A stretch of 64,000 nucleotides of DNA from Bryobacteraceae bacterium (GCA_035604115.1 DATNJC010000230.1:1522-65521), one strand, 5' to 3'; shown: positions 20,905 to 37,010, numbered from the stretch's first letter. Notes: a model not told the origin generated them from the letters alone. Made by a program: numbers and translations.

Positions 20905-20921
20905 GGCTTTGGGAAAGTAGG

Positions 20922-20957: not shown

Positions 20958-20999
20958 CCCACAACAGGCAGGGTTGCTTGCACTACAGAGAGATCCATC

Positions 21000-22529
21000 A
21001 TGGCGGCGCCTAATCCAATTCGGGACGCTTTTGCTCGCAAGCAGTTCTGCTACATGGTGGAGCTGGTCGCCAGCCGCCTGACTCGTGAAGCTACGCTGCT
21101 GCAGGTCGCCTCGCAACTGGCGCAGATTCCGGGTGTAGTGGCGGGCGGCATCACCAGCTACGCCGGGGGCGGGTTGGGGCACGATCCCATTCGCGTCGGC
21201 ACGGCGGCACGGGCGCGCGGACTGGTGCCTAACATCCATCTCACCTGCGTGAACCGCGACCGTCTGGATCTTTTGCGGGCGCTCGAGGATCTGTATGCGC
21301 TGGGTATCGAGAACGTTTTCGCGATCACCGGAGATTATCCCAAGGCAACGAATTCTTCCGCGCCTGCCGACTTCTCGATGGATTCGGTGCAGCTGGTGGA
21401 GATGATCAGCGAGCTGCGCGCCGCGGGTATGCCGTTCCACATCTCGGTGGCGGTTTCGCCATTCAAATACACGGAGCCGGATTGCGCCTATCAATACTTG
21501 AAGCTGGAGAAAAAGATCGCCGCGGGCGCGGACTTCGCGATCACCCAGCTCGGTTACGATGTCCGCAAGTTCCGCGAGCTGAAGCGTTACTTGGACGAGC
21601 GCGGCTTGAAGACGCCGGTGATGGGTAACGTCTACGTGCTGGCGGCCAAGCCCGCCGAGAGGATGTCCAAGGGCGAGCCTCCCGGATGCTGGGTATCGAA
21701 GGAGCTGCTCGAAAAGATTCAGGCAGAGACTAAGGCATCGACCGATAAGGGATTGGCTGCGCGCCTGGAACGGGCCGCGCGCACGGTGGCGGTTCTGCGC
21801 GGGATTGGCTACGCCGGAGCTTACCTCGGCGGCGACCATCAGGCCGACCGGGTCCGCTGGATCATCAAGCGGTCCGAAGAACTCGCGCCGAAGTGGGAGG
21901 AGCTGGCCGACGAACTCGCTTACGCGCCCAAGGGCGGGTTCTATTTTTACGATTCGCCCAAGCCCGCGCCTCCCAAACCGGAACTGCTTCCTCGATTCCT
22001 CGATTTCATGGGGCGATTGTTCCCGGTAAAGAAGCAAGGCCGGCTGCACGGCTTGCTGGCCAAGGTGTTTGGTTGGATCGACCGGCGTCCGGCGCTGGCG
22101 CACGGCCTGGAGCGCGTCGAGCTGTTGATGAAGAACAGGACCTTCGGGTGCAAGGCGTGCGGTAATTGCGTGCTCGGCGAGATGGAATACGTTTGTCCGA
22201 TGACGTGTCCCAAGAGCTTGCGCAACGGCCCGTGCGGCGGCACGTCCAACGGCCAGTGTGAGGTGTATCCGGACAAGCCCTGCATCTGGGTAGCGGTGTA
22301 CAATCACGCCAGCGCGGCCGGGCGCGTGGAGGATCTGAAGCTGTTCATTCCGGCGCGCAACCGGTCTCTGCAAGGCACCAGCTCCTTTATCAATCTGTTT
22401 CTCGATCGCGACAGCCGGCCGGGGCGGCCCCAACCGCTCATCCAGATCGGCGGCGTCACTCCAGTGGTTTTAGGAACCATGACCAAAACTTCAGACCCAG
22501 CGGAATTGGCTAAAGCGAGCGGTAAATAA
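21000..22529 (+). CDS. metF: Methylenetetrahydrofolate reductase fused to a Cys-rich MTHFR C-terminal (MetV-like) domain
   Basis: TIM-barrel motifs 'IHLTCVNR', 'FAITGDYP' and 'AITQLGYD'. The C-terminal 'CKACGNCVLGEMEYVCPMTCPKSLRNGPCGG' resembles the MTHFR_C zinc-ribbon domain. Confidence 0.85.
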   Translation: MAAPNPIRDAFARKQFCYMVELVASRLTREATLLQVASQLAQIPGVVAGGITSYAGGGLGHDPIRVGTAARARGLVPNIHLTCVNRDRLDLLRALEDLYALGIENVFAITGDYPKATNSSAPADFSMDSVQLVEMISELRAAGMPFHISVAVSPFKYTEPDCAYQYLKLEKKIAAGADFAITQLGYDVRKFRELKRYLDERGLKTPVMGNVYVLAAKPAERMSKGEPPGCWVSKELLEKIQAETKASTDKGLAARLERAARTVAVLRGIGYAGAYLGGDHQADRVRWIIKRSEELAPKWEELADELAYAPKGGFYFYDSPKPAPPKPELLPRFLDFMGRLFPVKKQGRLHGLLAKVFGWIDRRPALAHGLERVELLMKNRTFGCKACGNCVLGEMEYVCPMTCPKSLRNGPCGGTSNGQCEVYPDKPCIWVAVYNHASAAGRVEDLKLFIPARNRSLQGTSSFINLFLDRDSRPGRPQPLIQIGGVTPVVLGTMTKTSDPAELAKASGK

Positions 22530-22572
22530 TACACTCCCTTTCTAGCCGGTTTAGCTATAAGCTGTACAGGAC

Positions 22573-23673
22573 ATGCCTCCACGGTATCGAGCCGACCAAG
22601 TTGGCAGTTTGTTGCGGCCGCCTGAACTTCTGGAAATGCGCACGGCTTACGCCGCGGGGCGGATTGAGCGCGGCGAGCTCCTGGCGGCGGAAGACACGGC
22701 CATTGCGGATGCGCTTGCTCGGCAGCGGGATATCGGTCTGGACATTCTCGCGGACGGGGAAATGCGGCGGGGATCCTGGCTTACCGACATGGCCGACGCG
22801 GTCGAGGGATTCGTTCCGGATCGCGTGGCGCTGGAGTGGAAGGGACCGGGCGGCGGCGTCGAGGGCAGCACCGCGCAGGTCGCCGGATCGCGTTTGCATA
22901 AGGCCCGGAATCTCACCTCGAGGGAACTCCCGTATCTGATGCAACACGCCGCGGGGCCCTTCAAAATTACGCTGCCGGCGCCTTCGAACTTCATGGTTTC
23001 GAGCTATAAGCCCGGCCTGACCGACAAAGTGTACTCATCGCGCGCCGAATTGAGCGCGGAATTGGGCAAAATCGTCAAAGACGAAGTCGCCTGGCTGGCC
23101 GATCAGGGCGTGGTGTATCTTCAGTTGGACGCGCCTTATTATTCGCATTATCTGGACCCCCAGCATCGCGAGCAGTATCGCGCTCAAGGCCGCGATCCGG
23201 ACCGTGAGTTGGAGCAAGCGATCGCTTGCGATAACCTGGCTCTCAGTCCTCTGCCCCGCGAAGGGATCACTTCGGCCATGCACATCTGCCGCGGTAATAG
23301 CCGCAGCCGCTGGTACGCCGAGGGCGGTTACGAGGCGGTGGCCGAGAGGCTCTTCGGAACGGTGAAGGTGGACCGGTTCCTGCTGGAGTACGACACCGAG
23401 CGGTCTGGAGGGTTTGAGCCGCTGGCCCAGGTTCCGCGGGGGAAGACGGTGGTCCTGGGTTTGATCACCACGAAGACCCCGGAGCTCGAATCGCACGAAC
23501 AACTGCGGCGACGGATTGACGAGGCCTCCCGGTACATTCCTTTGGAGCACCTTGCTATCAGCCCGCAGTGCGGATTTGCTTCGGTGGCGGCGGGGAATCT
23601 GTTAACGCTCGACGAGCAATGGCGTAAGTTGGAACTGGTTGTTTCGGTGGCGCGCGAGATGTGGGGAGGCTGA
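22573..23673 (+). CDS. Second MetE-like (cobalamin-independent methionine synthase II family) protein
   Basis: 366 aa. 'YRADQVGSLLRPPELL', 'LADGEMRR' and 'MHICRGNSRS'. Confidence 0.8.
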   Translation: MPPRYRADQVGSLLRPPELLEMRTAYAAGRIERGELLAAEDTAIADALARQRDIGLDILADGEMRRGSWLTDMADAVEGFVPDRVALEWKGPGGGVEGSTAQVAGSRLHKARNLTSRELPYLMQHAAGPFKITLPAPSNFMVSSYKPGLTDKVYSSRAELSAELGKIVKDEVAWLADQGVVYLQLDAPYYSHYLDPQHREQYRAQGRDPDRELEQAIACDNLALSPLPREGITSAMHICRGNSRSRWYAEGGYEAVAERLFGTVKVDRFLLEYDTERSGGFEPLAQVPRGKTVVLGLITTKTPELESHEQLRRRIDEASRYIPLEHLAISPQCGFASVAAGNLLTLDEQWRKLELVVSVAREMWGG

Positions 23674-23675
23674 AC

Positions 23676-24563
23676 ATGAAACGCTTCTATGGAGCGACGG
23701 TATGGTTGTTGCTGTGGGCGGCGCTGGCTGGCGCTCAAACGCCCGCTTATCAGGATCGCTTCGTCACCGTGAACGGCCTGCGCATCCACTACCTGGACTG
23801 GGGCGGCGACGGCAAACCTCCGTTCCTGATGCTGCACGGCATCGGCCGCGTGGCGCATTCTTTCGACCACATCGCGCCGCGCTTCGCCGGGCGCTACCAC
23901 GTCATCGCCATGGACATGCGCGGGCACGGGGACTCGGGTTGGTCTCCCGAAGGCGCGTATCTGGTCGAGGACTACGTCAAGGATGTCGAAGGCCTGGTGG
24001 AGCAACTCAACTTGCGCGGGCTTACGCTGCTGGGCAATTCCACCGGAGGGCGTGTGGTGCAGGTTTACGCGAGCCTGCACCCGGAGCGCGTTGCCCGCCT
24101 GGTGGTCGAAGACGTGGGACCCGAGCGCACCAACGAAATCGCGTCCGGATTCGCCCGCCGGGTCGAGCAGGAAGATAAGGGCTGGGCGTCGGAAGACGAA
24201 TTGGTCGCGTCGCTGATGCGGGGCGGGGGACGAATTTCCGAGGCGTTACAGCGCAATTATGCGCACTTCGGCAGCAAAAAACGCGACGACGGACGCATTG
24301 TTTGGAAGCGCGATCCAAATCTGGTGAAAGGCTTCGTGCCCACGGAGCTATGGCGGTTCGTCAGGCAGATCAAGTGCCCCACGATTTATGTTCTCGGCGG
24401 GGCCAGCAACATCGTGCCGCCGGAAACGCAACTGGAGTTGCAGCAGACGCTGCCGGCCGTTAAGATCGTCGCCATGCCCGGGCTGGGGCATTATCCGCAC
24501 CTGGAGAGCCCGGACGAGTACCTGAAGATCGTAGACAAGTTCCTCGGCGCTTCGAAGCCGTGA
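23676..24563 (+). CDS. Secreted alpha/beta hydrolase
   Basis: Signal peptide, 'FLMLHGIG' and nucleophile elbow 'GNSTGG'. Confidence 0.8.
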   Translation: MKRFYGATVWLLLWAALAGAQTPAYQDRFVTVNGLRIHYLDWGGDGKPPFLMLHGIGRVAHSFDHIAPRFAGRYHVIAMDMRGHGDSGWSPEGAYLVEDYVKDVEGLVEQLNLRGLTLLGNSTGGRVVQVYASLHPERVARLVVEDVGPERTNEIASGFARRVEQEDKGWASEDELVASLMRGGGRISEALQRNYAHFGSKKRDDGRIVWKRDPNLVKGFVPTELWRFVRQIKCPTIYVLGGASNIVPPETQLELQQTLPAVKIVAMPGLGHYPHLESPDEYLKIVDKFLGASKP

Positions 24564-24590
24564 AAATTGGGTTTCGTTAGGAGCTTGTCC

Positions 24591-25784
24591 TCATTTAATC
24601 GTGGCCGGTCTGCCGAACCGTTTCGCGTCAATCGCGACGTTGGTCTGCACATCGCTGAGCTGAATGGCATCCCGCCCGTCCAGCCACGCGAAGGTCAAAC
24701 GAAACGGCATCTTGATGCCCCCGACGTCCCGATAATCGGCGAAATCCATCTGCGTGGGAACCCGCCCGATCGGCGTCCTGCTGTAACGGACCTCCCGCAA
24801 AAGCAGGCCCGACTCCTGGTCGAAGAATAAGGTCGCCAGAAGCCCTCGAGGGCCGCTTCCCTGGACCACTTGGACTCGTCGATCCTGCATCGGCACGACG
24901 TTCGCCTCCGACGCTGTTTGGCTGGATGGTCCGGGAAGATCGCTGATGGTGGTCGGCAAGCTGACCCGCAAATTGGTGAAGATCTGCTTGATCTGACCGG
25001 GGAAGGCCAGTTGCGCATCCAGCCTGGCTCCGTCCAGCTCAGTTCCGGTTATTTCGTACTCGCCCAGCACGGTAAGGGGAGTCTTGATCCACCCGGCCTG
25101 GCCGTTGTAGGTCCGGATGCTGTCTCCCCGATCCGGAGCATCCTTAAACTCGATCAGCGTGGTATGTTGATCCGGGAATTTCGCGAAGATTTGAACTTGT
25201 CCTCCGCCCCCGAAGCCTCCGAAGCCTACGCTGCTTCCTTTGGCAACATAGCTGGTCACGGCAGCCAGGCGCTGAGCCCCGCCCACGGCCTGAATGTACT
25301 TGTCGAAAATCTGCGCGGCCGAAGGCTGCCCCGGTATCGCGGGCAGAACATCGTCTTGCGCGGTCGGGCCAGGACCATAGATGTCTTCCAGGGCCGGCGT
25401 AGTCGCTGGATGATCGCGGCCGCGATGGCAGGTCCAGCAGGTGACGACCTGCGCTCCCGCGAAGTTGGTGCGATTGATGGTGGTCACCATGTTCACCATC
25501 TTCCTCGCGGTTACTTTGCGGGGAGTGTCGGCCGCCCAATCCACCTTGTCGGTACCGGCATTGGTATGACACTCATTGCAGCAAAAGCCCAGCGCCGCCG
25601 ACATCACGCCCATGGAGCCGATGAAATCGTCCACGCTCATGTCCTTGAGCGCCTGAATGTTCTTAAAGACCTGGTCCGCGTTTGGCCGGGTTTGTGAGTG
25701 CGCCTGAGGGAGCGCGACGCCGCCCAGCCAAATGACCGTCATGATCGAGACCGCCGCCAGCAGTCGTATCGAACGCAGCTTCAT
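24591..25784 (-). CDS. Periplasmic di-heme c-type cytochrome domain protein with a beta-rich C-terminal domain
   Basis: Signal peptide and two CxxCH sites ('CNECH', 'CWTCH'). The context 'FKNIQALKDMSVDDF' recalls the reaction-centre cytochrome c subunit-like domain. Confidence 0.8.
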   Translation of the reverse strand: MKLRSIRLLAAVSIMTVIWLGGVALPQAHSQTRPNADQVFKNIQALKDMSVDDFIGSMGVMSAALGFCCNECHTNAGTDKVDWAADTPRKVTARKMVNMVTTINRTNFAGAQVVTCWTCHRGRDHPATTPALEDIYGPGPTAQDDVLPAIPGQPSAAQIFDKYIQAVGGAQRLAAVTSYVAKGSSVGFGGFGGGGQVQIFAKFPDQHTTLIEFKDAPDRGDSIRTYNGQAGWIKTPLTVLGEYEITGTELDGARLDAQLAFPGQIKQIFTNLRVSLPTTISDLPGPSSQTASEANVVPMQDRRVQVVQGSGPRGLLATLFFDQESGLLLREVRYSRTPIGRVPTQMDFADYRDVGGIKMPFRLTFAWLDGRDAIQLSDVQTNVAIDAKRFGRPATIK

Positions 25785-25952
25785 AAATAATGTCCTTTCC
25801 GGATCTGCTCGCCAGCGCAGTCGGCCAACCGGGCCCAGCGGGGCAGACCTCCAGATCTGCGCGGGGCTATTTAGGCCCAGCTTCGGCTTCGGCCCCGCTG
25901 CGTAGGAATGCAGGACCGCCGCGCCCGTGCGCTCACTCCGTTGGCTGCCGCC

Positions 25953-26366
25953 TTATTTGGCGTCTGCTGGAGGAGCCGACGCGGCATCCGAGGAGCCCAC
26001 GAACAGCTTCCGGCCGTCCTGGAACGTGATATCGCGCCCATTGGCGCGACTGGTTCCATCCTTGGCCTGATAGCCGTCCACCACCACCACGGTGCCGGTT
26101 TCCAGCGAATTCTTCGTCATGCCCCGGCGCAGCAGTGTGTTGGGGCTGCCACCCTCGATCATCCAGTTGGTGACCTTGCCGTCGGCGTCTTTCACATCGA
26201 TGTGAATCCAGGCGTGCGGATTGATCCACTCCACCTTGGTCACGGTGCCCGTGAGTTTCACCGGCTTCTGCGCGTCGAACTCGGCGGCGAAGGCGTGGTG
26301 CGCCCAGGCCGGCACGACCGCCAGCAAAGCTCCGAAACCCGCTACTAGCATCAGTTTGGTTCGCAT
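25953..26366 (-). CDS. DUF6152-like small secreted protein (copy a)
   Basis: RBS gggaggg. 'MRTKLMLVAGFGALLAVVPAWA|HHAFAAEFD'. About 115 aa when mature. Confidence 0.8.
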   Translation of the reverse strand: MRTKLMLVAGFGALLAVVPAWAHHAFAAEFDAQKPVKLTGTVTKVEWINPHAWIHIDVKDADGKVTNWMIEGGSPNTLLRRGMTKNSLETGTVVVVDGYQAKDGTSRANGRDITFQDGRKLFVGSSDAASAPPADAK

Positions 26367-26429
26367 AATAATAATTTCCCTCCCATGCCCCGCAAGGCTA
26401 CTCTTCCCGCAAGCCACTTTTCCCGCAGG

Positions 26430-27443
26430 CTACTTACCCGCTTTCTTCTCGGCATCCCGCGCGCCCGATAAAATTCCTACCATACCATAGTTGCCTTCGT
26501 GGCACGCGTACTCAAAGATCGGCCCATCTATTTTCTCACTGGGAATCTGCGCCGTCCAGGGGTGGGCAAACGAGGACGGGTCATCCACGCTGAACGTATA
26601 GGTTAACGTGTCGGCCGCCGTGCGCGTGAAGCGCTCGGTCAAATGCAGGTTCGCGCTGGAGCCGCGGAACACGGTCTTATCGGTGAAATTGGTGGTGTCC
26701 ACCACCAGGGTGTCGCCTTCCCAGTGGCCGCGCGAATCGCCCAGCCACTGGCGAACTTCCTTGGGCGGGTGCGGACGCCCATCCAGCGGAATCATGCGCA
26801 CATCGTGAATCTGTTCGTTCGAGATGGCCACGAAGTCGCGCGTCTGCACGATCTGATAGTTGTTGTTGTAGGCGCTTGGCAGCATCGGCGGACCGGCGGT
26901 GGCCCAGTTGAGGCAACGCTCTGACAGGGTCCGGTCTTCAGGCCCCTCCGCCACACGCGTGCGCCGGTCGGCTGCTGCAGCTATACGCTGCTTCGCCGCC
27001 CCCGAGAGCGCCGGAATCTTGCCGTCGGGAGGATCGATAATCAGGGACGTGCGCCGCGTTTCGATCACTTTCGTTCCGCGATCGTACCAGGCTTCGTTAT
27101 AGGCGCGGCCGACGTCGGCGGCGTTTCCGCCATCCCGGCGGTCGCGGTTTTCGCGCGCGTTGACGGCGGCCTCATACTCGGCCGCCTCTTTCGCAGTCAG
27201 CGTGGGCTTGCCCGCTAGATCGTCGGGCCGCTCGAGCGGCGTAATCGTCGCGTTGGACCAGATTCCTTGCAGATCTGGCTGGCCGTCGGCGGTGCGTGGG
27301 GCCGTGTACTTCTTCGCGATCGCGGCGGCTTTCGCGGAGGCGGGTTTCGCGGCCGGAGTCTGAGCCAGCGCAAGCGCCGCGCCCGCTATCGAACATACGG
27401 ACCAAGTGGCGAACCCGGACCAAGTAGCGAACCGATGCTTCAT
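26430..27443 (-). CDS. Uncharacterised secreted protein, array paralog P1
   Basis: RBS gggaggg plus ATG at 27443. Motifs 'PRTADGQPDLQGIWS', 'YNNNYQIVQ', 'GHWEGDTLVVDTTNF' and 'FEYACHEGNYGM'. Confidence 0.8.
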   Translation of the reverse strand: MKHRFATWSGFATWSVCSIAGAALALAQTPAAKPASAKAAAIAKKYTAPRTADGQPDLQGIWSNATITPLERPDDLAGKPTLTAKEAAEYEAAVNARENRDRRDGGNAADVGRAYNEAWYDRGTKVIETRRTSLIIDPPDGKIPALSGAAKQRIAAAADRRTRVAEGPEDRTLSERCLNWATAGPPMLPSAYNNNYQIVQTRDFVAISNEQIHDVRMIPLDGRPHPPKEVRQWLGDSRGHWEGDTLVVDTTNFTDKTVFRGSSANLHLTERFTRTAADTLTYTFSVDDPSSFAHPWTAQIPSEKIDGPIFEYACHEGNYGMVGILSGARDAEKKAGK

Positions 27444-27473
27444 CGCTGACCCTCCCTTGCTCAAAATTCTCTA

Positions 27474-28523
27474 CTACCTTCCGGCAGCGGCCTTCTCTTC
27501 GGCCCCGCGGGCGCCGGACAAGATGCCCGTCATCCCGTAGTTGCCTTCGTGGCACGCGTACTCAAAGATCGGCCCATCTATTTTCTCACTGGGAATCTCC
27601 GCCGTCCAGGGGTGGGTGAAGGCCGCCGGATCGTCCACCGTGAAAGAGTACAGCAGTGTGTCCGGGGCCACGCGCGTGAAGCGCTCGGTCAGGTGCATGT
27701 TCTCACTGTGGTTGAAACGGCCGAATTCGACGCCGCGGAATGCGGTTTCACTCGAGAAGTTGGTGGTTTCGACCACTAAGGTGTCGCCTTCCCAATGGCC
27801 GCGCGAATCGCCCAGCCATTGGCGAATACCTTTGTCCACATGCGGGCGGTTGTCCAGCGGAATCATCCGCATATCGTGGATCTGTTCGTTCGAGATCGCC
27901 ACAAAATCGCGCGTCTGCACGATCTGATAGTTGTTGTTGTATGCGCTAGGCATCATCGGCGGACCGGCGGTGGCCCAGTTGATGCAGCGTTCCGACAGAG
28001 CCCGGTCCTCCGGACCATCGGACGGGTGCAGACGCCGCGACTCCGCGCGCGCCGCTACCTGCTTCTGCGCTTCCGGCGTCAGAGCCGGCAACTTGCCATC
28101 GGAAGGATCCACAATCAGCGAGGTGCGCCGCGTGCCGACGACCTTGGTTCCACGGTCCCACCAGAAATCGTTGTAGGCGCGGCTGACGTCCGCATCGGTT
28201 CCCGCGCCGGCGCGGCTATCCATGTTGTTCCGCTTGCGAACGGCGGCTTCATAATCGGCGGCTTCCTGGGCGGAGAGCGAGGCTTTGCCCGCCAGATCGG
28301 CGGGCCGCTCCAGCGGTGTGATGGTGGCGTTGGACCAGATTCCTTGCAGATCGGGTTGCCCCTCCGGCGTGCGCGGCGCCGTATACTTCTTCGCAATCGC
28401 AGCTGGCTTGACCGCGGGTTTGGCTACCGGCGCTTGAGCCGACACTTGAGCCGATGCTTGAGCCAGGGCCAGCGCCGCTCCGGCCAACGAAGATGCAGAC
28501 CAAGCGGCGAATCGGTGCTTCAT
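27474..28523 (-). CDS. Uncharacterised secreted protein, array paralog P2
   Basis: RBS aggagg plus ATG at 28523. Same motif set as P1. The C-terminal two-thirds is highly similar to P1 by eye. Confidence 0.8.
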   Translation of the reverse strand: MKHRFAAWSASSLAGAALALAQASAQVSAQAPVAKPAVKPAAIAKKYTAPRTPEGQPDLQGIWSNATITPLERPADLAGKASLSAQEAADYEAAVRKRNNMDSRAGAGTDADVSRAYNDFWWDRGTKVVGTRRTSLIVDPSDGKLPALTPEAQKQVAARAESRRLHPSDGPEDRALSERCINWATAGPPMMPSAYNNNYQIVQTRDFVAISNEQIHDMRMIPLDNRPHVDKGIRQWLGDSRGHWEGDTLVVETTNFSSETAFRGVEFGRFNHSENMHLTERFTRVAPDTLLYSFTVDDPAAFTHPWTAEIPSEKIDGPIFEYACHEGNYGMTGILSGARGAEEKAAAGR

Positions 28524-28536
28524 CGAGGTCCTCCTG

Positions 28537-29505
28537 TTACTGGCCGGCAGCTTTCTTCTCGGCTTCCCGCGCACCGCCCAGCATACCCGTCATCGCGTAA
28601 TTGCCTTCACTGCACGCGTACTCGTACAGATCGCCATCCGACTTGTTCCAGGTGATCGACGCGGTCCACGGTTTGGTGAACGCCGCCGGATCTTCCACCG
28701 TGAATTCGTAAGACAACATATCCCGAGCCACGCGTTTGAAACGCTCGGTCAGCTTCATGTTCTCCGTGGCGCCCCGGAAGCGCGTCTTGTCGCTGAAGTT
28801 GGTGGTCTCGACCACCAGGGTGTCGCCTTCCCAGTGGCCCCGCGAATCTCCCATCCACTGCCGGACGCTGGAGGGAACATGCGGACGGCCGTCGGTGGGG
28901 ATCGTTCGCACGTCATGAACCATCTCCACCAGAATGGTGACGGCTCCGGGTGTTTGAACGATGCGGTAGTTGTTGTTGTAAAAGCTCGGCAACATGGGTG
29001 GACCCGCGGTGGGCCACAGAATACACCGTTCCGTCAGCGCGCGGTCCTCGGGGCCATCGGCGGGATGCAGGCGCGCATACGCGCGCTGTTCCTGCTGCCG
29101 TTTTTGCGCCGTGGGCGTCAACGCCGGAATGCGTCCGTCCTTAGGGTCCACGATCAGCGAGGTCCGCTTGGTTCCCACCACCTTGGTCCCACGGTCATAC
29201 CACGCGTCGTTGTAAGCGCGCCCGACATCGGCTTCGGCGCCTCCATCGCGGCGGTCGGCGTTGTTGCGCTCTAGAGTTTCCTTCTCGAATTGCGCGGCTT
29301 CCTCATTGCTGAATCTTTCCTTGTTCGCCAGATTTGCGGGCCGCTCCAGGGGCGTAATGGTGGCGCTCGACCAAACGCCCGACAAGTCCGGATGCCCATC
29401 GGCGGTGCGGGGAGGAGTGTAGGATTTCGCCGGGCCTTGCGCCCAGGCTATTCCGAGGAACGCTGCCGCCAACCCGGCGGACCCCAGGTGAATCATAGGT
29501 TTCAT
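28537..29505 (-). CDS. Uncharacterised secreted protein, array paralog P3
   Basis: 'PRTADGHPDLSGVWS', 'YNNNYRIVQ', 'GHWEGDTLVVETTNF' and 'YEYACSEGNYAM'. Start is ambiguous (29505, 29496 or 29532). Confidence 0.75.
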   Translation of the reverse strand: MKPMIHLGSAGLAAAFLGIAWAQGPAKSYTPPRTADGHPDLSGVWSSATITPLERPANLANKERFSNEEAAQFEKETLERNNADRRDGGAEADVGRAYNDAWYDRGTKVVGTKRTSLIVDPKDGRIPALTPTAQKRQQEQRAYARLHPADGPEDRALTERCILWPTAGPPMLPSFYNNNYRIVQTPGAVTILVEMVHDVRTIPTDGRPHVPSSVRQWMGDSRGHWEGDTLVVETTNFSDKTRFRGATENMKLTERFKRVARDMLSYEFTVEDPAAFTKPWTASITWNKSDGDLYEYACSEGNYAMTGMLGGAREAEKKAAGQ

Positions 29506-29548
29506 TTTATTACACACGTGGCGCAGGGCCATGCCCTGCGAACCGGCC

Positions 29549-30571
29549 TTACTTCTTGCCCGCGGCCCTGGCTTCGTCTTCGCGCGCGGCGCCCAGAATT
29601 CCGCGCAGCGCGTAGTTACCTTCGGTGCACGCGTACTCGTAAACCTGATCGGGCGTCTTGTTCATCGGGACTTCGCCGGAAAACGGCCGCGCGAAGGTAC
29701 TCGGGTCGTCGACGGTGAACTGGTAGCTGATGGTATCCGCATCCACGCGAGTGAGCCGCTCGATCAAATGCATGCCGTCGCTCGAGCCATTAAAATTGCT
29801 CTTCTCGGCAAAATTGGTGGACTCGATGACCAAGGTGTCGCCTTCCCAATGTCCGCGCGGATCGCCCATCCACTGCCGGATGCTTCCCGGCACGTGCGGA
29901 CGCGGGTCCGAGGGCCGAACCAAGGGAATGATGCGCGCGTCGTGAATCATCTCATGCAGGATCGCCACGTAGCCCGGCGCTTGCACGATCTGGAAGTCGT
30001 TGTTATAAGGCCCCGGCACGATCGGCAGGCCGCGGGTCAGACAGCGTTCCCACAGGTTGCGGTCTTCGGGGCCGTCGGCGGGATGCGCGCGCTGATACGC
30101 GCGTTGCGCGGCCTGCTTCTTTTCGGCCTCGGCGGTCAGCGCAGGGATTTTTCCATCCGCCGGATCGGTGATCAGCGAGGTGCGCAGGCTGGCGATCACC
30201 GAATTCCCGCGGTCGCGCCAGAATTCGTTATACGAGCGCCCTACGTCCGCCTGCGGTCCGCCATCGCGGCGGTCTCCGGTGATATTGGCGAACTGGTTCT
30301 TGGCCCAGGTGTCGGCCTCCTGCTGCGAGGCGAAGTGGCTCTTGTTCGCGAGGTCGGCCGGGCGCTGCAGCGGCGTGAGCGTCGAGTTGGTCCAGACGCC
30401 CTGCAAATCGGGCTGGCCATCCGCGGTGCGCGGCACGGTCCATTTCTTGGAAACCGCGGTGGCAGGCTTAGCGGAGGAATTCGCTGGCTTGGCGACTGCG
30501 GTCTGGCCGGAGGCGACAACTGCAAATGTCGCCATGGCGAGTCCGCAAGAAACCAGCAGCCGGCGTGTCAT
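29549..30571 (-). CDS. Uncharacterised secreted protein, array paralog P4
   Basis: 'PRTADGQPDLQGVWT', 'YNNDFQIVQ', 'GHWEGDTLVIESTNF' and 'YEYACTEGNYAL'. The ATG overlaps the upstream stop by 1 nt (TAATG). Confidence 0.8.
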   Translation of the reverse strand: MTRRLLVSCGLAMATFAVVASGQTAVAKPANSSAKPATAVSKKWTVPRTADGQPDLQGVWTNSTLTPLQRPADLANKSHFASQQEADTWAKNQFANITGDRRDGGPQADVGRSYNEFWRDRGNSVIASLRTSLITDPADGKIPALTAEAEKKQAAQRAYQRAHPADGPEDRNLWERCLTRGLPIVPGPYNNDFQIVQAPGYVAILHEMIHDARIIPLVRPSDPRPHVPGSIRQWMGDPRGHWEGDTLVIESTNFAEKSNFNGSSDGMHLIERLTRVDADTISYQFTVDDPSTFARPFSGEVPMNKTPDQVYEYACTEGNYALRGILGAAREDEARAAGKK

Positions 30572-30993
30572 TACTTGCTGGTGTCTGCGCCCGGCTCAGC
30601 TCCCGGCGCCGAGCCGCCCATGAACAGCCGCTTGCCATCCTTGGCGAACGTGAGATTGGCTCCCACGGCCCGGTTTGCTCCGTCCTTGGCCTGATAGCCT
30701 TCGACGATGATGTCGGTGCCCGGAGGCAGCGCGTTCTTGGTGAAACCCAGCCGGAGCAGGGCATTGGGGCTTCCACCTTCCACCATCCACTCGGTGACCT
30801 TACCGTCCGGGCCCTTCACGTTCAGCCGGATCCAGGAATGTGGATTGACCAGCTCCCACTTCACGACGGTGCCTTGCAACTTCAACGGCCGGTTCTCGTC
30901 GAACTCCGCAGCGAAGGCGTGATGCGCGTGAACCGGCAGCGCGACCGTGAGCGCAGCCGCCGCCGCGCAAATCAAAAATATACGAGTGCGCAT
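30571..30993 (-). CDS. DUF6152-like small secreted protein (copy b)
   Basis: RBS aggag. 'MRTRIFLICAAAAALTVALPVHA|HHAFAAEFD'. Confidence 0.8.
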   Translation of the reverse strand: MRTRIFLICAAAAALTVALPVHAHHAFAAEFDENRPLKLQGTVVKWELVNPHSWIRLNVKGPDGKVTEWMVEGGSPNALLRLGFTKNALPPGTDIIVEGYQAKDGANRAVGANLTFAKDGKRLFMGGSAPGAEPGADTSK

Positions 30994-31021
30994 TCTGACT
31001 CCTGACTTCTTGCTACTGGTG

Positions 31022-32017
31022 TCACTTGGCACCGGCGGCTTGCTTGGCCTCAGTCGCCCGCACGCCGCTCAGAATGTTGGCCATCCCGTAGTTGCCTTCC
31101 TGGCAGGCGTACTCGAAGATGCGATCATTGGCGCTCTTGACCCACGACACCTCCGCCGACCACGGCTGGGTCCAGGTGGCGGGATCTTCCACGGTGAACT
31201 GATAGGTGAGCGTCTCGGCGTCTTTGCGCGTGAAGCGCTCGGTCACATGCAGGTTTTCGCTGGACCCGCGCCACGCCGCCCGGCCGTTGAAGTTCGCCGT
31301 ATCCACCACCAGCGTGTTGCCTTCCCAGTGCCCGCGCGAATCGCCGAACCACAGCTTCACATTCTTGTCCGGATGCGCGCTCCCGTCCGTGGGAATCATG
31401 CGCGTGTCGTGGATCATCTCCTGCAGAATGGCCACGTAGCCCGGCCCTTGCACGATCTGAAGGTTGTCGTTGTAACCCGCCGCCATCATCGGCGGACCCT
31501 CGCTGCCCCACAAAATGCAGCGCTCCGCCAGCCCGCGATTTTCCGGCCCGTCGAAGCCGTGGTCGCGCCGTATCGCGGCCGCGGCCGCCGCCCGTTGCTT
31601 GGCCGCGTCGGTAGTCGGCGGAATCCGTCCCTCCGGACCCACGATCAGCGAAGTACGCAAGCTAGGTGCAATCTCGCGCCGGTTCAATGCGAACTGGCTC
31701 AGGTCGTAGTGCACCGCCAACGCACCATCTTCGCGCGGCGCGGCCTTTCCCTTGCGCTGCCCGGCCCGCGCGGCATTGGCGGCGAGTTCCTCGGGTGTGT
31801 AAAACTCCTTAGCGCCGAGGTTCGCCGGCCGCTCCAGCGGCACCGTCGTCGCCGTCGACCACACGCCCTGCAAATCCGGCTGCCCGTCCGTCGTGCGCAG
31901 CGCGACCGTCCCTTTGGACGCGGGGGCGGCAGCGGGCTTCGACGCCACCTGTGAAAAAGCCAGCGCTGCGGCCAGCATCACGATAGCAACAAGAGCGAAT
32001 GTGAATTTGCGAATCAT
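31022..32017 (-). CDS. Uncharacterised secreted protein, array paralog P5
   Basis: 'RTTDGQPDLQGVWS', 'YNDNLQIVQ', 'GHWEGNTLVVDTANF' and 'FEYACQEGNYGM'. Confidence 0.8.
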   Translation of the reverse strand: MIRKFTFALVAIVMLAAALAFSQVASKPAAAPASKGTVALRTTDGQPDLQGVWSTATTVPLERPANLGAKEFYTPEELAANAARAGQRKGKAAPREDGALAVHYDLSQFALNRREIAPSLRTSLIVGPEGRIPPTTDAAKQRAAAAAAIRRDHGFDGPENRGLAERCILWGSEGPPMMAAGYNDNLQIVQGPGYVAILQEMIHDTRMIPTDGSAHPDKNVKLWFGDSRGHWEGNTLVVDTANFNGRAAWRGSSENLHVTERFTRKDAETLTYQFTVEDPATWTQPWSAEVSWVKSANDRIFEYACQEGNYGMANILSGVRATEAKQAAGAK

Positions 32018-32060
32018 CGTGAGCGCGTCTCCTGGAAATGATTTTGATTTGTCTGCTTAC

Positions 32061-32894
32061 TTATTTTGTGTAGGGATCGGTTCCCTTTTTGCGGAGGTTT
32101 CCGTACAGCAGCTCCTCGGCGAACTCCACGCATTTGAACTCCAGCAACTGGGCGTTCTTCTCCACGTGCCGGTACAGCGGGAAGCTGATCTTCCACGGCT
32201 TCGAGAACACATTCTTGTCTTCGATCGTGGCCTCGTAGTTCAAGGTATCGGCGCTGCGCGGCGTCCAGCGCTCCACCACGTGCAGAGCGTCGCTATGGTA
32301 GTTGCCGGAGCGGTCGAACCACGTCATGTCGTTCAAGCCGGTGACGTCCACCACCAGCGTGTCGCCTTCCCAGTGGCCGTTGGACCAGCCCATCCAGCTA
32401 TCCACCGGCGCTTCCTTCTTGCTGTCGATGTTGATGGTGCGCACCGCGCCCGCGTACTCGTACGAAATCAGAACCACCTTGCTCGATTGCACGATCTGGA
32501 ACGGATACGGCATGTAGTTGGCGCGCGGCACGCCGGGCAGGTAGCACTTCAGCTCCGGATCGTCTTTCGAGCGGGCGGCAAAATTCGCTTTTTTCTTAGC
32601 CAGCGCCGCGGGCAGATAGGGAATTTCTTCGCCGTCCACGATGCCCAGCCCGGGCGGCTGCGCTTCCTCGGCGCCCAGTTGCCACATGAACCCCGGACCC
32701 GCCGCGTGCCCTTGAATGTCCCAATTGGCGGTGTTCATGGCCTGCCAGATCCCGTTCAGATTGGCGTGGCCATCCGCGGTTTTTGGAGCCTTATAAGCCG
32801 GCGCCTGACTGTGGGCCGGCATCACCGCGAGCAGCAGGCCCGCCGCCGCGGCCGCTGTCACCATACTCCAGTTTCGAAGCTCAGTTCGCGTCAT
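32061..32894 (-). CDS. Uncharacterised secreted protein, divergent array paralog P6
   Basis: RBS gagggaacaATG. 'PKTADGHANLNGIWQ', 'GHWEGDTLVVDVTGL' and 'LEFKCVE'. Shorter and more divergent than P1-P5. Confidence 0.75.
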   Translation of the reverse strand: MTRTELRNWSMVTAAAAAGLLLAVMPAHSQAPAYKAPKTADGHANLNGIWQAMNTANWDIQGHAAGPGFMWQLGAEEAQPPGLGIVDGEEIPYLPAALAKKKANFAARSKDDPELKCYLPGVPRANYMPYPFQIVQSSKVVLISYEYAGAVRTINIDSKKEAPVDSWMGWSNGHWEGDTLVVDVTGLNDMTWFDRSGNYHSDALHVVERWTPRSADTLNYEATIEDKNVFSKPWKISFPLYRHVEKNAQLLEFKCVEFAEELLYGNLRKKGTDPYTK

Positions 32895-33039
32895 TGTTCC
32901 CTCGCGCACAACGGACTCGTTTGTGCGTCCTTTTCGTGAAAATACACCACCGGCGCGCCGGTCCGACAACTCCGGCTAAGATGGTACATTCAAATCACTT
33001 CAGTGTCAACGGGAGAATGGCGGCGGGACGGTTGCACTG

Positions 33040-33347
33040 TCATTGCTGAGCCCGCTGGCTCAGAAACGCCGGGATGTCGCGTGAGCCCTGGGTCACGGCC
33101 ACGATCTCAATGGACTGACGAGACGCACGATAGATGATCAAATACGCCCCGACCGGCCAGAACGGACCGGATGAGGCGTGAAGTCTTCGCGCTTGCGGCC
33201 CATCCCCGGAGTCTGCCCGAGGGCCTCAAACGCGTCGTACAGCGTTCCGATCCAGCGATCGGCGGCCTCGACGTCGTCTGCGGCGATGTATTCCCAAATC
33301 CCGTCGAGGTCGCGATCTGCATCGCCACTAAGGACGTACCCGCTCAC
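33040..33347 (-). pseudogene. parE: ParE/RelE-family toxin with a 1-nt frameshift
   Basis: GTG 33347 reads 'SGYVLSGDADRDLDGIWEYIAADDVEAADRW...REDFTPHPVR'. The conserved C-terminus 'FWPVGAYLIIYRASRQSIEIVAVTQGSRDIPAFL' continues in another frame, with the shift near 33161-33162, down to the stop at 33040. Confidence 0.75.
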
Positions 33348-33610
33348 GCGCGAGTCTTGCGGCGTTCGGCAGACTTGCGCTGTAATCGGGCGCGGGCGGC
33401 AGCCGGGTCGACGGTTTCGCCGCGATCGAGGGCGGCGAGGCGGCGGCCGAGCTCCTGGTTGAATTCCGCCAGTTGCGCCGCGCGCGCGGAGTCGTGCTCC
33501 TCCAGCAATCGCAACGCTTCCCGAACGACCTCGCTCGCCGAGTTATAACGACCCGATTGCACCTTAGCGCTGACGAGTTTTTCCAGTTCCGGCGTTAGAG
33601 AGACGTTCAT
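33344..33610 (-). CDS. parD: ParD/CopG-type (TIGR02606-like) antitoxin
   Basis: 88 aa. 'MNVSLTPELEKLVSAKVQSGRYNSASEVVREALRLLEE'. GTGA overlap with parE. Confidence 0.85.
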   Translation of the reverse strand: MNVSLTPELEKLVSAKVQSGRYNSASEVVREALRLLEEHDSARAAQLAEFNQELGRRLAALDRGETVDPAAARARLQRKSAERRKTRA

Positions 33611-33696
33611 TTGGGCGACTCCGGGCCGTCTTCAGAGTAAGTCCGGATAGCGAAGATTGTCAATGTCTGTTATTGCGCAAGTTCGCTTTAATCGCA

Positions 33697-35169
33697 CTAT
33701 TGCTGGATCGGGTTGAGCGCTTTGGGCGGCGCGGGCGGCCTGGGCACGCCCGGAATCGCGGGCACGCCCGGAATGGCGGGAGCGACCGGTGCTTTCGGAG
33801 CCGCGGGCGCCACGTCCTCCGCCCCCGCTTTTTGCACCTCGATGCGCCCGCGCTCGGTCGACAGATCCACCGACGGTCCACCGTTGGACCCGCGCAGCGC
33901 CGACCCGCGCTTGTTCGATTCCTCGCGCAGCGGAGGCCCGAATTCATTGCTCACTTCGCCGCGCACGCTGGTCGCATTCAAGTCGAACTTGGCAGCCGCC
34001 GGGAGCGCCAGCTCGATGTTCCCGGCGCGCGTGTGGACCTGCATTCTGGCCAGGGGCAGGGAACCGGGCCGCAGGTCGATGTCGCCGCGGACGACGTTCA
34101 CTTCGAGGGAATTCGTAACGCCAGAGATCTGCACGTCGCGCGCGTTGGAGTGAAGGATCACCGGGCCCACCAGATTCTCGCCCGTGAATTCTCCCAGCGG
34201 CATGCGCACCTCGCCGGGAATCTTCTCGGCGCTAAACTCGCTCTGCGGGCCGGTGAAGTGCACCGTCCGGGTCATATTATGAAAGCGCACCATGCCGCGA
34301 TAGCCGCCGTTGATGATTACCGGGCCGTCGACATTCTCCAGATCGATGTCGCTCCCACTGCCCCTAAGGACCAGCCCGCCCTTCAGATTCACCGCCCGCA
34401 CAATCTCGCTGCGGCGCAGGTCCAGGCGCGCCTGCCCGCCCACGTTTTCCATCCGCACGCCGGCGTTATCGGAGGTGATGTCCACTTCGCCATTAATTCC
34501 GCTGATATCGAAATCGCCGCTGCGTCCATGCGCTTCTATTGACGCCCCTCTGGGAACGGTGATGTCCATTTCGGCCGTAATCCGCGCGGCCCTGGAAGGA
34601 TGGTCCTGATTGGTGCGGATCACCACGCGGTTGGCGTCCCCCACTAGCTCGAACGGAGATTCCCGGTCGCTCGCGTCGGCCGCGTTCTGGTCCATGCTGC
34701 GAACCGTCTTGCGCCCGGTCACCTTGACGCTGGTGACATCGCCGCCGGTGATGTGTGCGTTGCCCCGGAAACTCTCCAGCACCACGCGCGGCGCGGCAGC
34801 GGCGGGCTTTTCTCCGGACAGCGGATACTCGAAACTTTCGCCGAACACGTCCAGCCCGCCCATCTCCAGCCGCCCCCGCGGCAGCCAGTTCGAGAACCCG
34901 CGCGCCGCGTTCAGGCTGAATCCGAAAATGCACAGGAACACCACCAGCACCCATTCGCCGGCCGAAACGCCGGCATTAGGCAGGGGCCGAGAGGTAGAAG
35001 CCCAGAACACAATCTCGGCCAGCCGCAGTACGCCCCACAGAATCAGCAGCAGCGGCCAGTACTTGGCCAGATAGTCCAGCAGCGGCACGTCCGGAAACAC
35101 GTTCCGCGCCAGAAACACCCCGCCGATGCCGATCAGCAACAGTGGCGCCGCGAGCGATGCGCGTCTCAT
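33697..35169 (-). CDS. Membrane-anchored DUF4097 (putative adhesin/LiaF-like) protein with a Pro-rich tail
   Basis: N-terminal TM hairpin 'YWPLLLILWGVLRLAE'. Repetitive beta-helix-like segments such as 'GDFDISGINGEVDITSDNAGVRMENV'. ATGA overlap with the upstream gene. Confidence 0.75.
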   Translation of the reverse strand: MRRASLAAPLLLIGIGGVFLARNVFPDVPLLDYLAKYWPLLLILWGVLRLAEIVFWASTSRPLPNAGVSAGEWVLVVFLCIFGFSLNAARGFSNWLPRGRLEMGGLDVFGESFEYPLSGEKPAAAAPRVVLESFRGNAHITGGDVTSVKVTGRKTVRSMDQNAADASDRESPFELVGDANRVVIRTNQDHPSRAARITAEMDITVPRGASIEAHGRSGDFDISGINGEVDITSDNAGVRMENVGGQARLDLRRSEIVRAVNLKGGLVLRGSGSDIDLENVDGPVIINGGYRGMVRFHNMTRTVHFTGPQSEFSAEKIPGEVRMPLGEFTGENLVGPVILHSNARDVQISGVTNSLEVNVVRGDIDLRPGSLPLARMQVHTRAGNIELALPAAAKFDLNATSVRGEVSNEFGPPLREESNKRGSALRGSNGGPSVDLSTERGRIEVQKAGAEDVAPAAPKAPVAPAIPGVPAIPGVPRPPAPPKALNPIQQ

Positions 35170-35348
35170 AATTGCCGCCATCCTCCGGTGCGCCGGCCCA
35201 GCAGCAGTACGCCCCACACGATCAGCAGCACCGGCCAAAACAGGTGCAACTCACGCAGCCAGTACAGGTCCGGAAACAAGTTCCGCGCCAGCCAAAACGT
35301 CCCGAACAAGATCAAGACCACCGGGAACCCAATGGATCCGCCTCTCAT
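35166..35348 (-). CDS. 60-aa two-TM mini-protein (DUF5668/LiaF-N-like hairpin)
   Basis: 'MRGGSIGFPVVLILFGTFWLARNLFPDLYWLRELHLFWPVLLIVWGVLLLG'. ATGA overlaps on both sides. Confidence 0.6.
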   Translation of the reverse strand: MRGGSIGFPVVLILFGTFWLARNLFPDLYWLRELHLFWPVLLIVWGVLLLGRRTGGWRQL

Positions 35349-35524
35349 ACGCTTTTTGCTCCAAATCTCTCCGCGAGCTTCAACAGCCCGATTACGATCA
35401 GCAGCACCGGCCACGTACGCCAGAAACTCACCGAGCCGAAATGATCGATGGTCACCAGCACGCCCAGTGTGATCATCATCACCGGTCCCCGGATGGCGGA
35501 AATGAAGGAGCCGCTGCTGGTCAT
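35345..35524 (-). CDS. 59-aa two-TM mini-protein (same hairpin module)
   Basis: 'MTSSGSFISAIRGPVMMITLGVLVTIDHFGSVSFWRTWPVLLIVIGLLKLAE'. ATGA overlaps on both sides. Confidence 0.6.
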   Translation of the reverse strand: MTSSGSFISAIRGPVMMITLGVLVTIDHFGSVSFWRTWPVLLIVIGLLKLAERFGAKSV

Positions 35525-36384
35525 GCCGGCCCTCCGCTTCCCGGCGGTGTGTCCTGCCGGCGGTTCTCGCGCGTCGCCCACGCCAGCCGCACATACAGCA
35601 TGTAAACGCCCAGCGCGATCAGCAGCACCGGCCAATACCGCAAGATCCGCCGGATTTCAAGGAAGCCCAGATTGCTTAGCAGAAACACCACGCCCAACGC
35701 GATCAGGATCACGGGAGCGGCGGGAATATTGGTGCCGCCGTGGACCGGCAACACGCTGGAGAATTCATCCACCGGCTGCCCCAGCCTCCGCCGTTTGGCG
35801 GTGTGAAACGCTTCGAAGGCCATGTAGGCCCAAAACGCGGCCAGCATCAGGCTCAGCAGAGGCTCCAGGCCCTCGGCCGCGTTGTTGCTCAGAACCGAGA
35901 TCAGCAAGCCCACGATCACCACATGCACCAGGCCCTTGCCGTACTGCCCGTTGTAGACCGCGCCCACACCCGGAATCAGCCCCAGCAGGAACGCCAACCC
36001 GGGCGACACGTCGCGATTCGGCAAGGGCGGCGGCGCGGTGCTCGTATAGGGCGAGGCATATGGCGAATCGGCAAACCCCGCACCGGTTGCGGTGAACCCG
36101 CTTCCCGTCGCACCAGCACCGGCCGTGCCCGCTCCGGCCGCGCCCCCGGCCGCTCCCCCAGACGCTCCCATGGGAGGCGGCGCATGCTCGGCGCAAAAAA
36201 TGGTTCCATGTGCCGCGCGAACGCTCGCGGCGTCCAGGGCTTTGCCGCACGCGCGGCAATAGCCGACGGTCACGCCTGGCGCCGAGCTCGAGCCCGGACT
36301 TTGCTCCGGACTTCGCTCCGGACTTCGCTCCGGACCTTGCTCCCGGCCCTGCTCGGGGCTTTGTCCCGGCTGCTGCGGATTCAT
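35521..36384 (-). CDS. Zinc-ribbon membrane protein with a low-complexity linker and the same C-terminal TM hairpin
   Basis: 'YCRACGKALDAASVRAAHGTIFCAEH', several TM segments, and C-terminal 'RYWPVLLIALGVYMLY'. ATGA overlap with the anti-sigma gene. Confidence 0.7.
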   Translation of the reverse strand: MNPQQPGQSPEQGREQGPERSPERSPEQSPGSSSAPGVTVGYCRACGKALDAASVRAAHGTIFCAEHAPPPMGASGGAAGGAAGAGTAGAGATGSGFTATGAGFADSPYASPYTSTAPPPLPNRDVSPGLAFLLGLIPGVGAVYNGQYGKGLVHVVIVGLLISVLSNNAAEGLEPLLSLMLAAFWAYMAFEAFHTAKRRRLGQPVDEFSSVLPVHGGTNIPAAPVILIALGVVFLLSNLGFLEIRRILRYWPVLLIALGVYMLYVRLAWATRENRRQDTPPGSGGPA

Positions 36385-36992: not shown

Positions 36993-37010
36993 GCTTTGAA
37001 TCTCTAATCC

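Follow-up and report, generated by a model that had tools for sequence, protein, structure and literature searches.

What might a run of six paralogous secreted proteins, two small DUF6152 proteins, and a di-heme c-type cytochrome do together? The question is raised by a 64,000-nucleotide stretch of a Bryobacteraceae bacterium genome (GCA_035604115.1 DATNJC010000230.1:1522-65521; hereafter, the window, at its full length), where nine consecutive minus-strand genes of coding-type composition (GC content at third codon positions, 0.74 to 0.81) span positions 24591 to 32894 and read, in order of transcription, P6, P5, DUF6152b, P4, P3, P2, P1, DUF6152a, and the cytochrome. Gene calls and coordinates bore out the array, strand, and gene order described in a first-pass annotation of the window. 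Here, we report that the P proteins form two subfamilies, short (S) and long (L), which recur with DUF6152 (D) as an S-L-D module. We tentatively propose, at somewhat less than an even chance, that the module is a periplasmic, possibly metal-dependent complex working alongside quinoprotein and cytochrome redox enzymes.

P1 to P6 are paralogous (identity to P1 of 75, 61, 55, 51, and 32% for the other five), as the first-pass annotation had claimed when it described six tandem paralogs with P6 as a shorter, divergent relative. That description of P6 did not stand, since P6-type proteins (S, about 260 to 280 aa) constitute a separate, conserved short subfamily whose identity stays at about 70% through hundreds of clusters. 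Every family gene was classified in 81 genome loci around L-type homologs, and the commonest multigene arrangement was S, L, and DUF6152 on one strand with short gaps, which was found 11 times alone and also inside larger arrays (LSLD, LSLDSLD, SLDL, and similar). The S-L-D order is repeated with independent gene calls in several loci (L083, L085, L087, and others) and is kept across phyla. The window array itself opens with S-L-D (P6, P5, DUF6152b), continues with L-L-L-L-D (P4 to P1, DUF6152a), and ends with the cytochrome.

A converse sample of 80 metagenome loci was seeded with DUF6152. In this DUF6152 clade, wherever more than 650 bp lay upstream of a D gene, the gene directly preceding it on the same strand was of the P family, and the ten D-only loci were all contig-edge cases. 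D-P fusion open reading frames (ORFs) were detected in two unrelated lineages (L003:1055-2194, Rariloculaceae; L077:7734-9104, Acidobacteria group 5), comprising a signal peptide, a DUF6152 domain, and a complete S-like barrel. Given the gene adjacency, the conserved order, and the domain fusion, it is very likely that DUF6152 and the barrel protein are linked directly in function, and probably also physically. Co-occurrence of DUF6152 with P homologs had been put forward in the first-pass annotation as a point to check, and the linkage is conserved and much stronger than was supposed there. Other long ORFs in these loci were rejected as fusions: a 485-aa L-D ORF in L086 is a read-through or assembly artefact, its DUF6152 part keeping its own Met and signal peptide, and in L029, L041, and L073, the long ORFs that run over D are spurious, having been extended upstream. 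As a separate observation, a tannase/feruloyl-esterase gene follows S-L-D in two related contigs (L083:12310-13833 and L086:12297-13826) and overlaps the DUF6152 stop in L083, which suggests co-transcription with a plant-phenolic esterase.

The P family is large and unannotated. A P1-to-P6 profile retrieved 26,879 cluster representatives (50% identity clusters) at E ≤ 1e-3 and 2,989 at E ≤ 1e-30; searches with P3 and P6 each returned at least 8,000 matches, and among the matches listed, all were "hypothetical" and none carried a precomputed Pfam domain. Hosts are mainly Acidobacteriota (Bryobacterales, Vicinamibacterales, and Terriglobia), with some Gamma- and Alphaproteobacteria, and several family copies per genome are common. 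P1 to P6 gave zero matches to Pfam and NCBIfam, and 87 diverse relatives gave zero matches to Pfam, except for one fusion to a squalene-cyclase-like domain. The lipocalin and FABP families of Pfam matched neither the window proteins (at E ≤ 0.1) nor the 87 relatives (at E ≤ 0.01), and sequence searches of the PDB with three profiles returned nothing for S or L. The earlier statement that P1 to P6 fit no characterised family thus held, and the hidden Markov model (HMM) searches recommended with it brought out no functional annotation.

Pairwise dN/dS (nonsynonymous to synonymous substitution ratio) among the paralogs, likewise recommended, ran from 0.17 to 0.55, and dS did not fall below 0.89 in any pair. 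Each paralog is closer to orthologs in other genomes than to its array siblings; P3, for instance, has relatives of about 70% identity in many other genomes and is at most 65% identical to its array neighbours. By these measures, all copies are old, individually maintained lineages under purifying selection. The substrate diversification suggested for them in the first-pass annotation would be a candidate reading; at H308 (P3 numbering), a position conserved in L-type proteins, the paralogs differ. Recent tandem amplification was ruled out by the high dS everywhere and by the closer relatives outside the array. The sequence blocks described as invariant in the first-pass annotation are real and highly conserved, not strictly invariant: P4 has GLPIV for GPPM and an insertion in IHD..R..P.DG, P5 has GPENR, and P3 has DGHPDLSG. 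At the start of all nine array products, a basic n-region leads into a hydrophobic stretch and then an AxA-type cleavage site (read from sequence), in keeping with the signal peptide claimed for each, and these predicted Sec signal peptides fit a periplasmic or secreted location for all nine.

The AlphaFold2 model of P3 (L type) is of medium confidence (predicted local distance difference test [pLDDT], 79; predicted template modelling [pTM] score, 0.76) and consists, in order, of a short first strand with a near-invariant GxW, then three helices, eight more strands, and, at the C-terminus, a long helix. The top 40 Foldseek matches in the PDB were almost all FABP, CRABP, and tardigrade SAHS proteins, at weak scores (E, 4e-4 to 6e-3; TM to target, 0.44 to 0.57; about 115 of 331 residues aligned; 10 to 15% identity). 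The structure prediction and fold search proposed in the first-pass annotation therefore gave, for P3, a weak match to an FABP/calycin-like barrel and, for DUF6152a, an OB-fold (see below). We describe L, with due reserve, as an "FABP/calycin-like barrel with enlarged lid," a modelled resemblance and not a family membership.

Conserved residues were compared between 396 L-type and 163 S-type sequences (P3 numbering). Both types share a core of GxW, PE, C170, QxxQ, E203, R209, WxG, WEG, E263-R264, Y275, D281, PW, E304, C307, E309, and R322. Specific to L, and replaced or deleted in S, are R64, Y185-N186, H206, D207, D214, H218, D229, R231, H308, and N311. In L-type proteins, H206 is found at a frequency of 89%, D214 at 86%, H218 at 79%, H308 at 85%, and N311 at 95%; the S type has G, D/G, K, V, and a gap there, respectively. 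P6 is without H206, D207, H218, D229, H308, N311, and part of the helical insert, and H206 and H218 are kept in all five L copies of the window. This distribution suggests a putative metal or catalytic/ligand site in L and, in S, a partner without it. The two invariant cysteines sit in the two lowest-confidence segments of the model and most likely form a disulfide, the protein being predicted to be periplasmic.

Both DUF6152 proteins matched PF19649 above its gathering cut-off of 27 bits (DUF6152b, 111.2 bits, model positions 3 to 95; DUF6152a, 123.2 bits, positions 6 to 94; model length, 98). The AlphaFold2 model of DUF6152a (pLDDT, 78) is an oligonucleotide/oligosaccharide-binding fold (OB-fold), and its Foldseek matches are the OB-folds of the LysRS N-domain, SSB, PriB, and Stn1. 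A His-His pair directly follows the AxA cleavage site (predicted by rule) in 37 of 37 diverse members, every one of which also carries an NPH motif. A mature N-terminal His, together with a His at position 2 and a further conserved His, is the setting of Cu(II) "histidine brace"/NH2-Xaa-His chemistry. By analogy, the conserved His and Trp residues of DUF6152 suggest metal handling. DUF6152 searched by sequence against the PDB matched no solved structure, NCBIfam gave noise only, and no paper mentioning DUF6152 or PF19649 was found in the library searched.

The cytochrome has two CxxCH motifs (CNECH and CWTCH) that align with PufC heme sites, and its residues 25 to 141 match the first di-heme half of PufC (PDB 7c52_C, E 1e-14; PF02276, E 3.6e-14, 53.3 bits against a cut-off of 22.4, model positions 41 to 141 of 310 only). 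A match to NF033196 is borderline (70.2 bits against a cut-off of 70). The 400-aa PufC-like (CytoC_RC) cytochrome is encoded near D, in varying orientation, in at least 11 loci (L008, L031, L037, L050, L074, L082, L084, L085, L086, L118, and L149). Its linkage is seen in a minority, 5 of 29 DUF6152-containing loci versus 2 of 59 others (Fisher p 0.04), and CxxCH genes make up 15.8% of the genes within 2 kb of D versus 6% farther off (about 2- to 3-fold). The co-occurrence of cytochrome c that the first-pass annotation had suggested checking is thus found for c-type cytochromes in general, and the PufC-like one is present in about one-fifth of D loci only. Neither of the two outcomes named there as speaking against its reading, homologs with an established functional annotation or DUF6152 and cytochrome c unlinked in other genomes, was encountered outright. 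The C-terminal domain of the cytochrome was considered as a diverged P-family barrel and rejected (hhalign probability, 0.4%). In two other loci (L033:1-987 and L069:1-573), a SoxH-like metallo-beta-lactamase (MBL) domain is preceded by a segment, "...YREVGGVQIPRF...," that resembles, by eye, the end of that C-terminal domain, "...YRDVGGIKMPFR...," and the two may share a domain.

Neighbour families were clustered over 85 loci, and gene densities were determined in a later analysis of 88 loci. By number of loci among the 85, the leading families were P (82), DUF6152 (26), pyrroloquinoline quinone (PQQ)-dependent dehydrogenases (25), and secreted SoxH-like MBL-fold hydrolases (13), the last scoring below NCBIfam cut-offs. 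High-scoring PQQ dehydrogenase genes numbered 30 in 22 of the 88 loci, 13 of them within 1 kb of a family gene, and their density was 5.6 per 100 kb within 1 kb versus about 0.5 per 100 kb at 6 to 10 kb (about 10-fold). These enzymes are of the methanol/ethanol type (TIGR03075-type) and of a soluble glucose-dehydrogenase-like type, and several score on the NCBIfam "acido-empty-quinoprotein" model. A search for the D-Y-D (lanthanide [Ln]-type) motif in 31 neighbouring PQQ enzymes gave one plausible and one unrelated match, with a regular expression too crude for the glucose-dehydrogenase-like enzymes. Other neighbours include tannase, MBL hydrolases, YVTN propellers, six-bladed PQQ sugar dehydrogenases, GSDH, phosphodiesterase, PSCyt/DUF1501, DUF1552/DUF1592, and ankyrin proteins. 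The neighbourhoods support a common theme of periplasmic oxidoreductases and hydrolases and do not identify the reaction. The periplasmic redox context claimed in the first-pass annotation is consistent with the enrichment of PQQ dehydrogenases and of CxxCH proteins. The window has a PQQ dehydrogenase of its own (Table 1), which is like the glucose/quinate/shikimate family and is without a cytochrome domain; ORFs without a family match flank it (17152-17916, 17942-18328, and 18393-19880).

The features of the array and the window PQQ dehydrogenase are collected in Table 1. P6 starts with the ATG at 32894, the TTG at 32969 being an over-extension, and internal ATGs are the true starts of P6, P3, P2, P1, and both DUF6152 genes. 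The two NCBI products identical to array proteins are "hypothetical protein" entries in GenBank from a Bryobacteraceae metagenome-assembled genome. Spacers along the direction of transcription are 43, 28, −1, 43, 13, 30, 63, and 168 nt; the earlier description of 10- to 45-nt spacers with one 1-nt overlap is right for most of these and fails for the last two. The complete nine-gene array was found again in a metagenome contig, L082, and with the age and selection of its copies this puts the array far beyond chance. An 18-nt duplication reported in the P1 signal peptide was recovered by repeat analysis (27398 to 27433; period, 18; 2.0 copies; 94% matches), is missing in the L082 ortholog, and is private to the window genome. 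P1 also has a 15-nt tandem repeat (1.9 copies, 27324 to 27352) in an Ala/Lys/Pro linker after the signal peptide, and the VEFGRFN insertion of P2 (27690 to 27730, minus strand) falls in a barrel loop and is not present in the L082 ortholog.

Table 1. Positions of the array genes, the promoter-like site, and the PQQ dehydrogenase in the window
Feature	Position	Strand	Description
P6	32061-32894	-	Short-type (S), 277 aa; signal peptide; product identical to NCBI HXP88502.1
P5	31022-32017	-	Long-type (L), 331 aa; L of the S-L-D core
DUF6152b	30571-30993	-	140 aa; PF19649; predicted mature N-terminus HHAFAAEFD
P4	29549-30571	-	L-type, 340 aa; start overlaps DUF6152b stop by 1 nt (TAATG)
P3	28537-29505	-	L-type, 322 aa; product identical to NCBI HXP88498.1
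P2	27474-28523	-	L-type, 349 aa; private 7-aa insertion VEFGRFN
P1	26430-27443	-	L-type, 337 aa; 18-nt tandem duplication in signal peptide
DUF6152a	25953-26366	-	137 aa; PF19649; predicted mature N-terminus HHAFAAEFD
Di-heme c-type cytochrome	24591-25784	-	PufC-like N-terminal unit and C-terminal domain of about 250 aa without an assigned family
Sigma-70-like promoter TTGACA-17 nt-TACCAT	32981-33009	-	Upstream of P6; putative function
Soluble PQQ-dependent dehydrogenase	14905-17028	+	707 aa; PF01011 E 3.9e-183; TIGR03074-like without membrane anchor

Between 24300 and 33700, the only promoter-like site lies just upstream of P6, and about 55 nt around it are identical in L082, where the upstream genes differ. 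Because the genes share a strand, have short spacers and one overlap, are served by one conserved promoter-like site, and recur as an array in L082, the simplest reading is that the array would be a single operon transcribed from its own sigma-70-type promoter. The leader from promoter-like site to P6 start is about 85 nt long and contains a GC-rich hairpin (ACCGGCGCGCCGGT, 32949 to 32962, minus strand) followed by a T-rich run; the hairpin is partly conserved in L082 and could be a leader/attenuator element or nothing. An Rfam scan of 23000 to 35000 gave zero matches and hence no riboswitch lead.

Upstream of P6, a ParD-like antitoxin gene (33344 to 33610) and a ParE-like toxin gene lie within 33038 to 33610 (minus strand); the toxin gene is frameshifted near 33175, with its N- and C-terminal halves in different frames. 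This insertion sits between a DUF4097 gene and P6, and L082 is without it as a whole. Farther upstream (33697 to 37748, minus strand) are genes for an extracytoplasmic function (ECF) sigma factor, a zf-HC2 anti-sigma factor, and a LiaF-like/DUF4097 "toastrack" membrane protein; in L082, the ECF sigma/anti-sigma/LiaF-like set directly precedes the array on the same strand. Downstream, an alpha/beta hydrolase gene (23661 to 24563, plus strand) converges on the array in the window and is not found in L082. Two MetE-like (Meth_synt_2) genes around an MTHFR gene with a DUF5981 C-terminal domain (19816 to 23673, plus strand) are syntenic with L082, and a KdpD-like sensor kinase gene (DUF4118, HisKA, and HATPase) with kdpA (56172 to 62038, plus strand) is unrelated to the array.

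We picture the proposed complex as follows. L would be the functional subunit, an FABP/calycin-like beta-barrel with a helical lid, in which conserved polar residues and the L-specific H206, D214, H218, and H308 may form a metal or catalytic/ligand site. S would be a partner paralog that has kept the barrel core and the two invariant cysteines and lost the L site. Mature D is predicted to expose its invariant His-His N-terminus next to the conserved NPH histidine and would bind a metal ion there, most likely through Cu(II)-type "histidine-brace/XH" (NH2-Xaa-His) chemistry, and its role toward the barrel protein would be that of a metallochaperone or redox relay. Electrons or substrates could pass between the complex and the di-heme cytochrome and, elsewhere, neighbouring PQQ dehydrogenases, in what would be the periplasmic oxidation of organic compounds. 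A bolder form of the proposal, which we consider unlikely, is that S-L-DUF6152 has gone unrecognised as an accessory system of periplasmic quinoproteins, in bacteria most of which make no PQQ of their own; the barrels would take up and retain a redox cofactor (PQQ or a quinone), or be metal-dependent redox enzymes themselves, and D would load metal or relay electrons to c-type cytochromes.

Several observations weigh against the proposed complex. The match of folds is a weak one, extending over no more than about one-third of L. H308 is found in the window only in P1 and P2, and P3, P4, and P5 have S, T, or Q in its place, so a fixed three-His site is not universal. The commonest arrangement of all is a solitary L without S or D (75 cases), so L can work alone. 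DUF6152 has an OB-fold where known brace proteins have a beta-sandwich, and the CusF ligands are missing. PQQ dehydrogenases are linked to solitary L no less strongly than to D-containing modules, the window PQQ dehydrogenase lies 7.6 kb from the array in another transcription unit, and neighbours beyond the core are heterogeneous, with no single further partner conserved.

The main alternative is a carrier function. S and L might be putative non-catalytic periplasmic ligand-binding barrels (FABP, lipocalin, or YceI type), with D as an adaptor, that hand on to their partners an amphipathic or anionic substrate or product of neighbouring enzymes, a quinone, or scavenged PQQ. Ligand carriers account for all of the best structural matches, and the conserved Arg/Tyr/Trp/Glu residues of the barrel resemble carboxylate-anchoring sites. 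PQQ enzymes of several subfamilies adjoin the family, which argues for a generic rather than a substrate-specific partner, and acidobacterial quinoproteins score on the "empty" model cited above. Many Acidobacteria are reported to be without PQQ synthesis or PqqU (PMC12124388). The large conserved polar set, with its L-specific His and Asp, is more suggestive of an active or metal site than of a lipid pocket, however, and a single cofactor ligand would not readily account for five L paralogs in one operon; we consider a carrier somewhat less probable than the proposed complex. Delivery of a metal instead of an organic ligand is improbable. In that case the module would capture the lanthanide or calcium needed at the active site of PQQ dehydrogenases and supply it in the periplasm, as might be suggested by the proximity of the P family to these enzymes, by the many invariant Asp/Glu residues in both L and D, and by the small periplasmic Ln cargo proteins predicted in soil bacteria (bioRxiv 10.64898/2026.07.10.737718). 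Histidines, poor Ln(III)/Ca(II) ligands, stand out most among the conserved residues, an EF-hand-like loop is absent, and the cargo protein published in that work is without a conserved domain and so is not DUF6152.

The genes around the array raise two further possibilities. With the ECF sigma/anti-sigma/LiaF-like/DUF4097 genes directly upstream on the same strand in L082, and upstream in the window too, the array might be their output and its products envelope-stress or structural proteins serving the cell envelope. This we hold to be more improbable still, given that the array has its own conserved sigma-70-like promoter, that a toxin-antitoxin pair is inserted between regulators and array in the window, and that ECF sigma genes are not recurrent neighbours in the 85 loci; on the first and last of these grounds, ECF-sigma control of the array is not favoured. 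Least probable of all is coincidental clustering, in which tandem duplicates of an abundant secreted family happen to have DUF6152 and a cytochrome hitch-hiking with them. Solitary L genes are indeed common and the cytochrome linkage is a minority pattern, but P-then-D adjacency is obligate in 80 independent metagenome loci, two D-P fusions arose independently, and the order is kept across phyla, and for DUF6152 the coincidence explanation is largely refuted.

The most abundant bacteria of soil include Bryobacterales and Vicinamibacterales (Acidobacteriota), whose periplasmic biochemistry is in large part uncharacterised. The present analysis turns a block of "hypothetical protein" genes into a concrete experimental target, with a defined module, natural fusions, candidate residues, and a statistical link to redox enzymes. 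If a quinoprotein role, or a role in the periplasmic oxidation of plant-derived compounds, is true, the module bears on the use of PQQ enzymes by soil bacteria that do not make the cofactor; if the accessory-system form of the proposal is true, the "empty" acidobacterial quinoproteins would gain a working cofactor and an electron pathway. At minimum, new family models and an S/L subfamily split are justified.

Firm memberships in known families are limited, on sequence grounds, to DUF6152 (itself uncharacterised) and the PufC-related di-heme domain. PufC, the tetraheme reaction-centre subunit, and NF033196 ("c_type_nonphoto") share the first di-heme unit and both CxxCH motifs with the window cytochrome; PufC proper has four heme motifs, whereas the window protein has one di-heme unit and a domain of about 250 aa, which makes it a half-unit relative, and no reaction-centre genes are present with it. 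L bears a weak, modelled resemblance to FABP, CRABP, and SAHS proteins (calycin superfamily), whose type is a ten-stranded up-and-down barrel with a helical insert after strand A, in that the P3 model has a GxW first strand, a helical "lid," and eight to nine antiparallel strands. It differs from FABP in being 2.5 times larger and secreted, in its two invariant cysteines, and in having about 100 residues of lid, a long helix at the C-terminus, and a conserved segment at the N-terminus; no FABP/lipocalin HMM matched it. YceI-like proteins are periplasmic polyisoprenoid/quinone-binding barrels encoded beside cytochrome b561. They are comparable as periplasmic lipocalin-type barrels linked to a cytochrome, an analogy only, as they have no sequence or Pfam similarity to the P family and the partners here are a c-type di-heme protein and DUF6152.

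For DUF6152, the periplasmic OB-folds CusF and YgiW/BOF offer a likeness as small secreted OB-folds, D having conserved His and Trp. CusF, a Cu(I)/Ag(I) chaperone, binds Cu(I) through a His/Met/Met/Trp site; DUF6152 has, in contrast to this His-Trp-Met-Met ligand set, an N-terminal His-His and NPHxWxH and no conserved Met-x-Met. Histidine-brace proteins (lytic polysaccharide monooxygenases [LPMOs], CopC, and YcnI) are alike in that mature DUF6152 is predicted to start with His and has further conserved histidines, and differ in having an Ig-like or cupredoxin-like beta-sandwich rather than an OB-fold.

Against the NCBIfam quinoprotein-accessory models (XoxJ/MxaJ-like substrate-binding protein, PQQ-associated propeller, SoxYZ-like carrier, and relay metallohydrolases), S, L, and D gave no match, and work on acidobacterial XoxF clusters describes other small proteins, not the P family. 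Since the S/L profile tests, the CusF and brace structural comparisons, and the NCBIfam accessory models all failed to place it and no DUF6152 literature was found in the library searched, we rate the module as lying outside the known kinds of system, "new" here meaning uncharacterised, not demonstrably exotic. Its nearest likeness in setting is to the accessory genes of PQQ clusters (XoxG/cytochrome cL, XoxJ/MxaJ, PedG/YVTN propeller, and SoxH-like "quinoprotein relay" metallohydrolases), in that the P family too adjoins PQQ dehydrogenases and its neighbourhoods share SoxH-like MBL hydrolases, YVTN propellers, and c-type cytochromes with those clusters, an association that is statistical and does not hold everywhere. 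What is new beside these systems is the S/L split, the S-L-D core, the obligate P-then-D adjacency with its fusions, the class-specific residues with the invariant His-His, and the PQQ/cytochrome enrichment.

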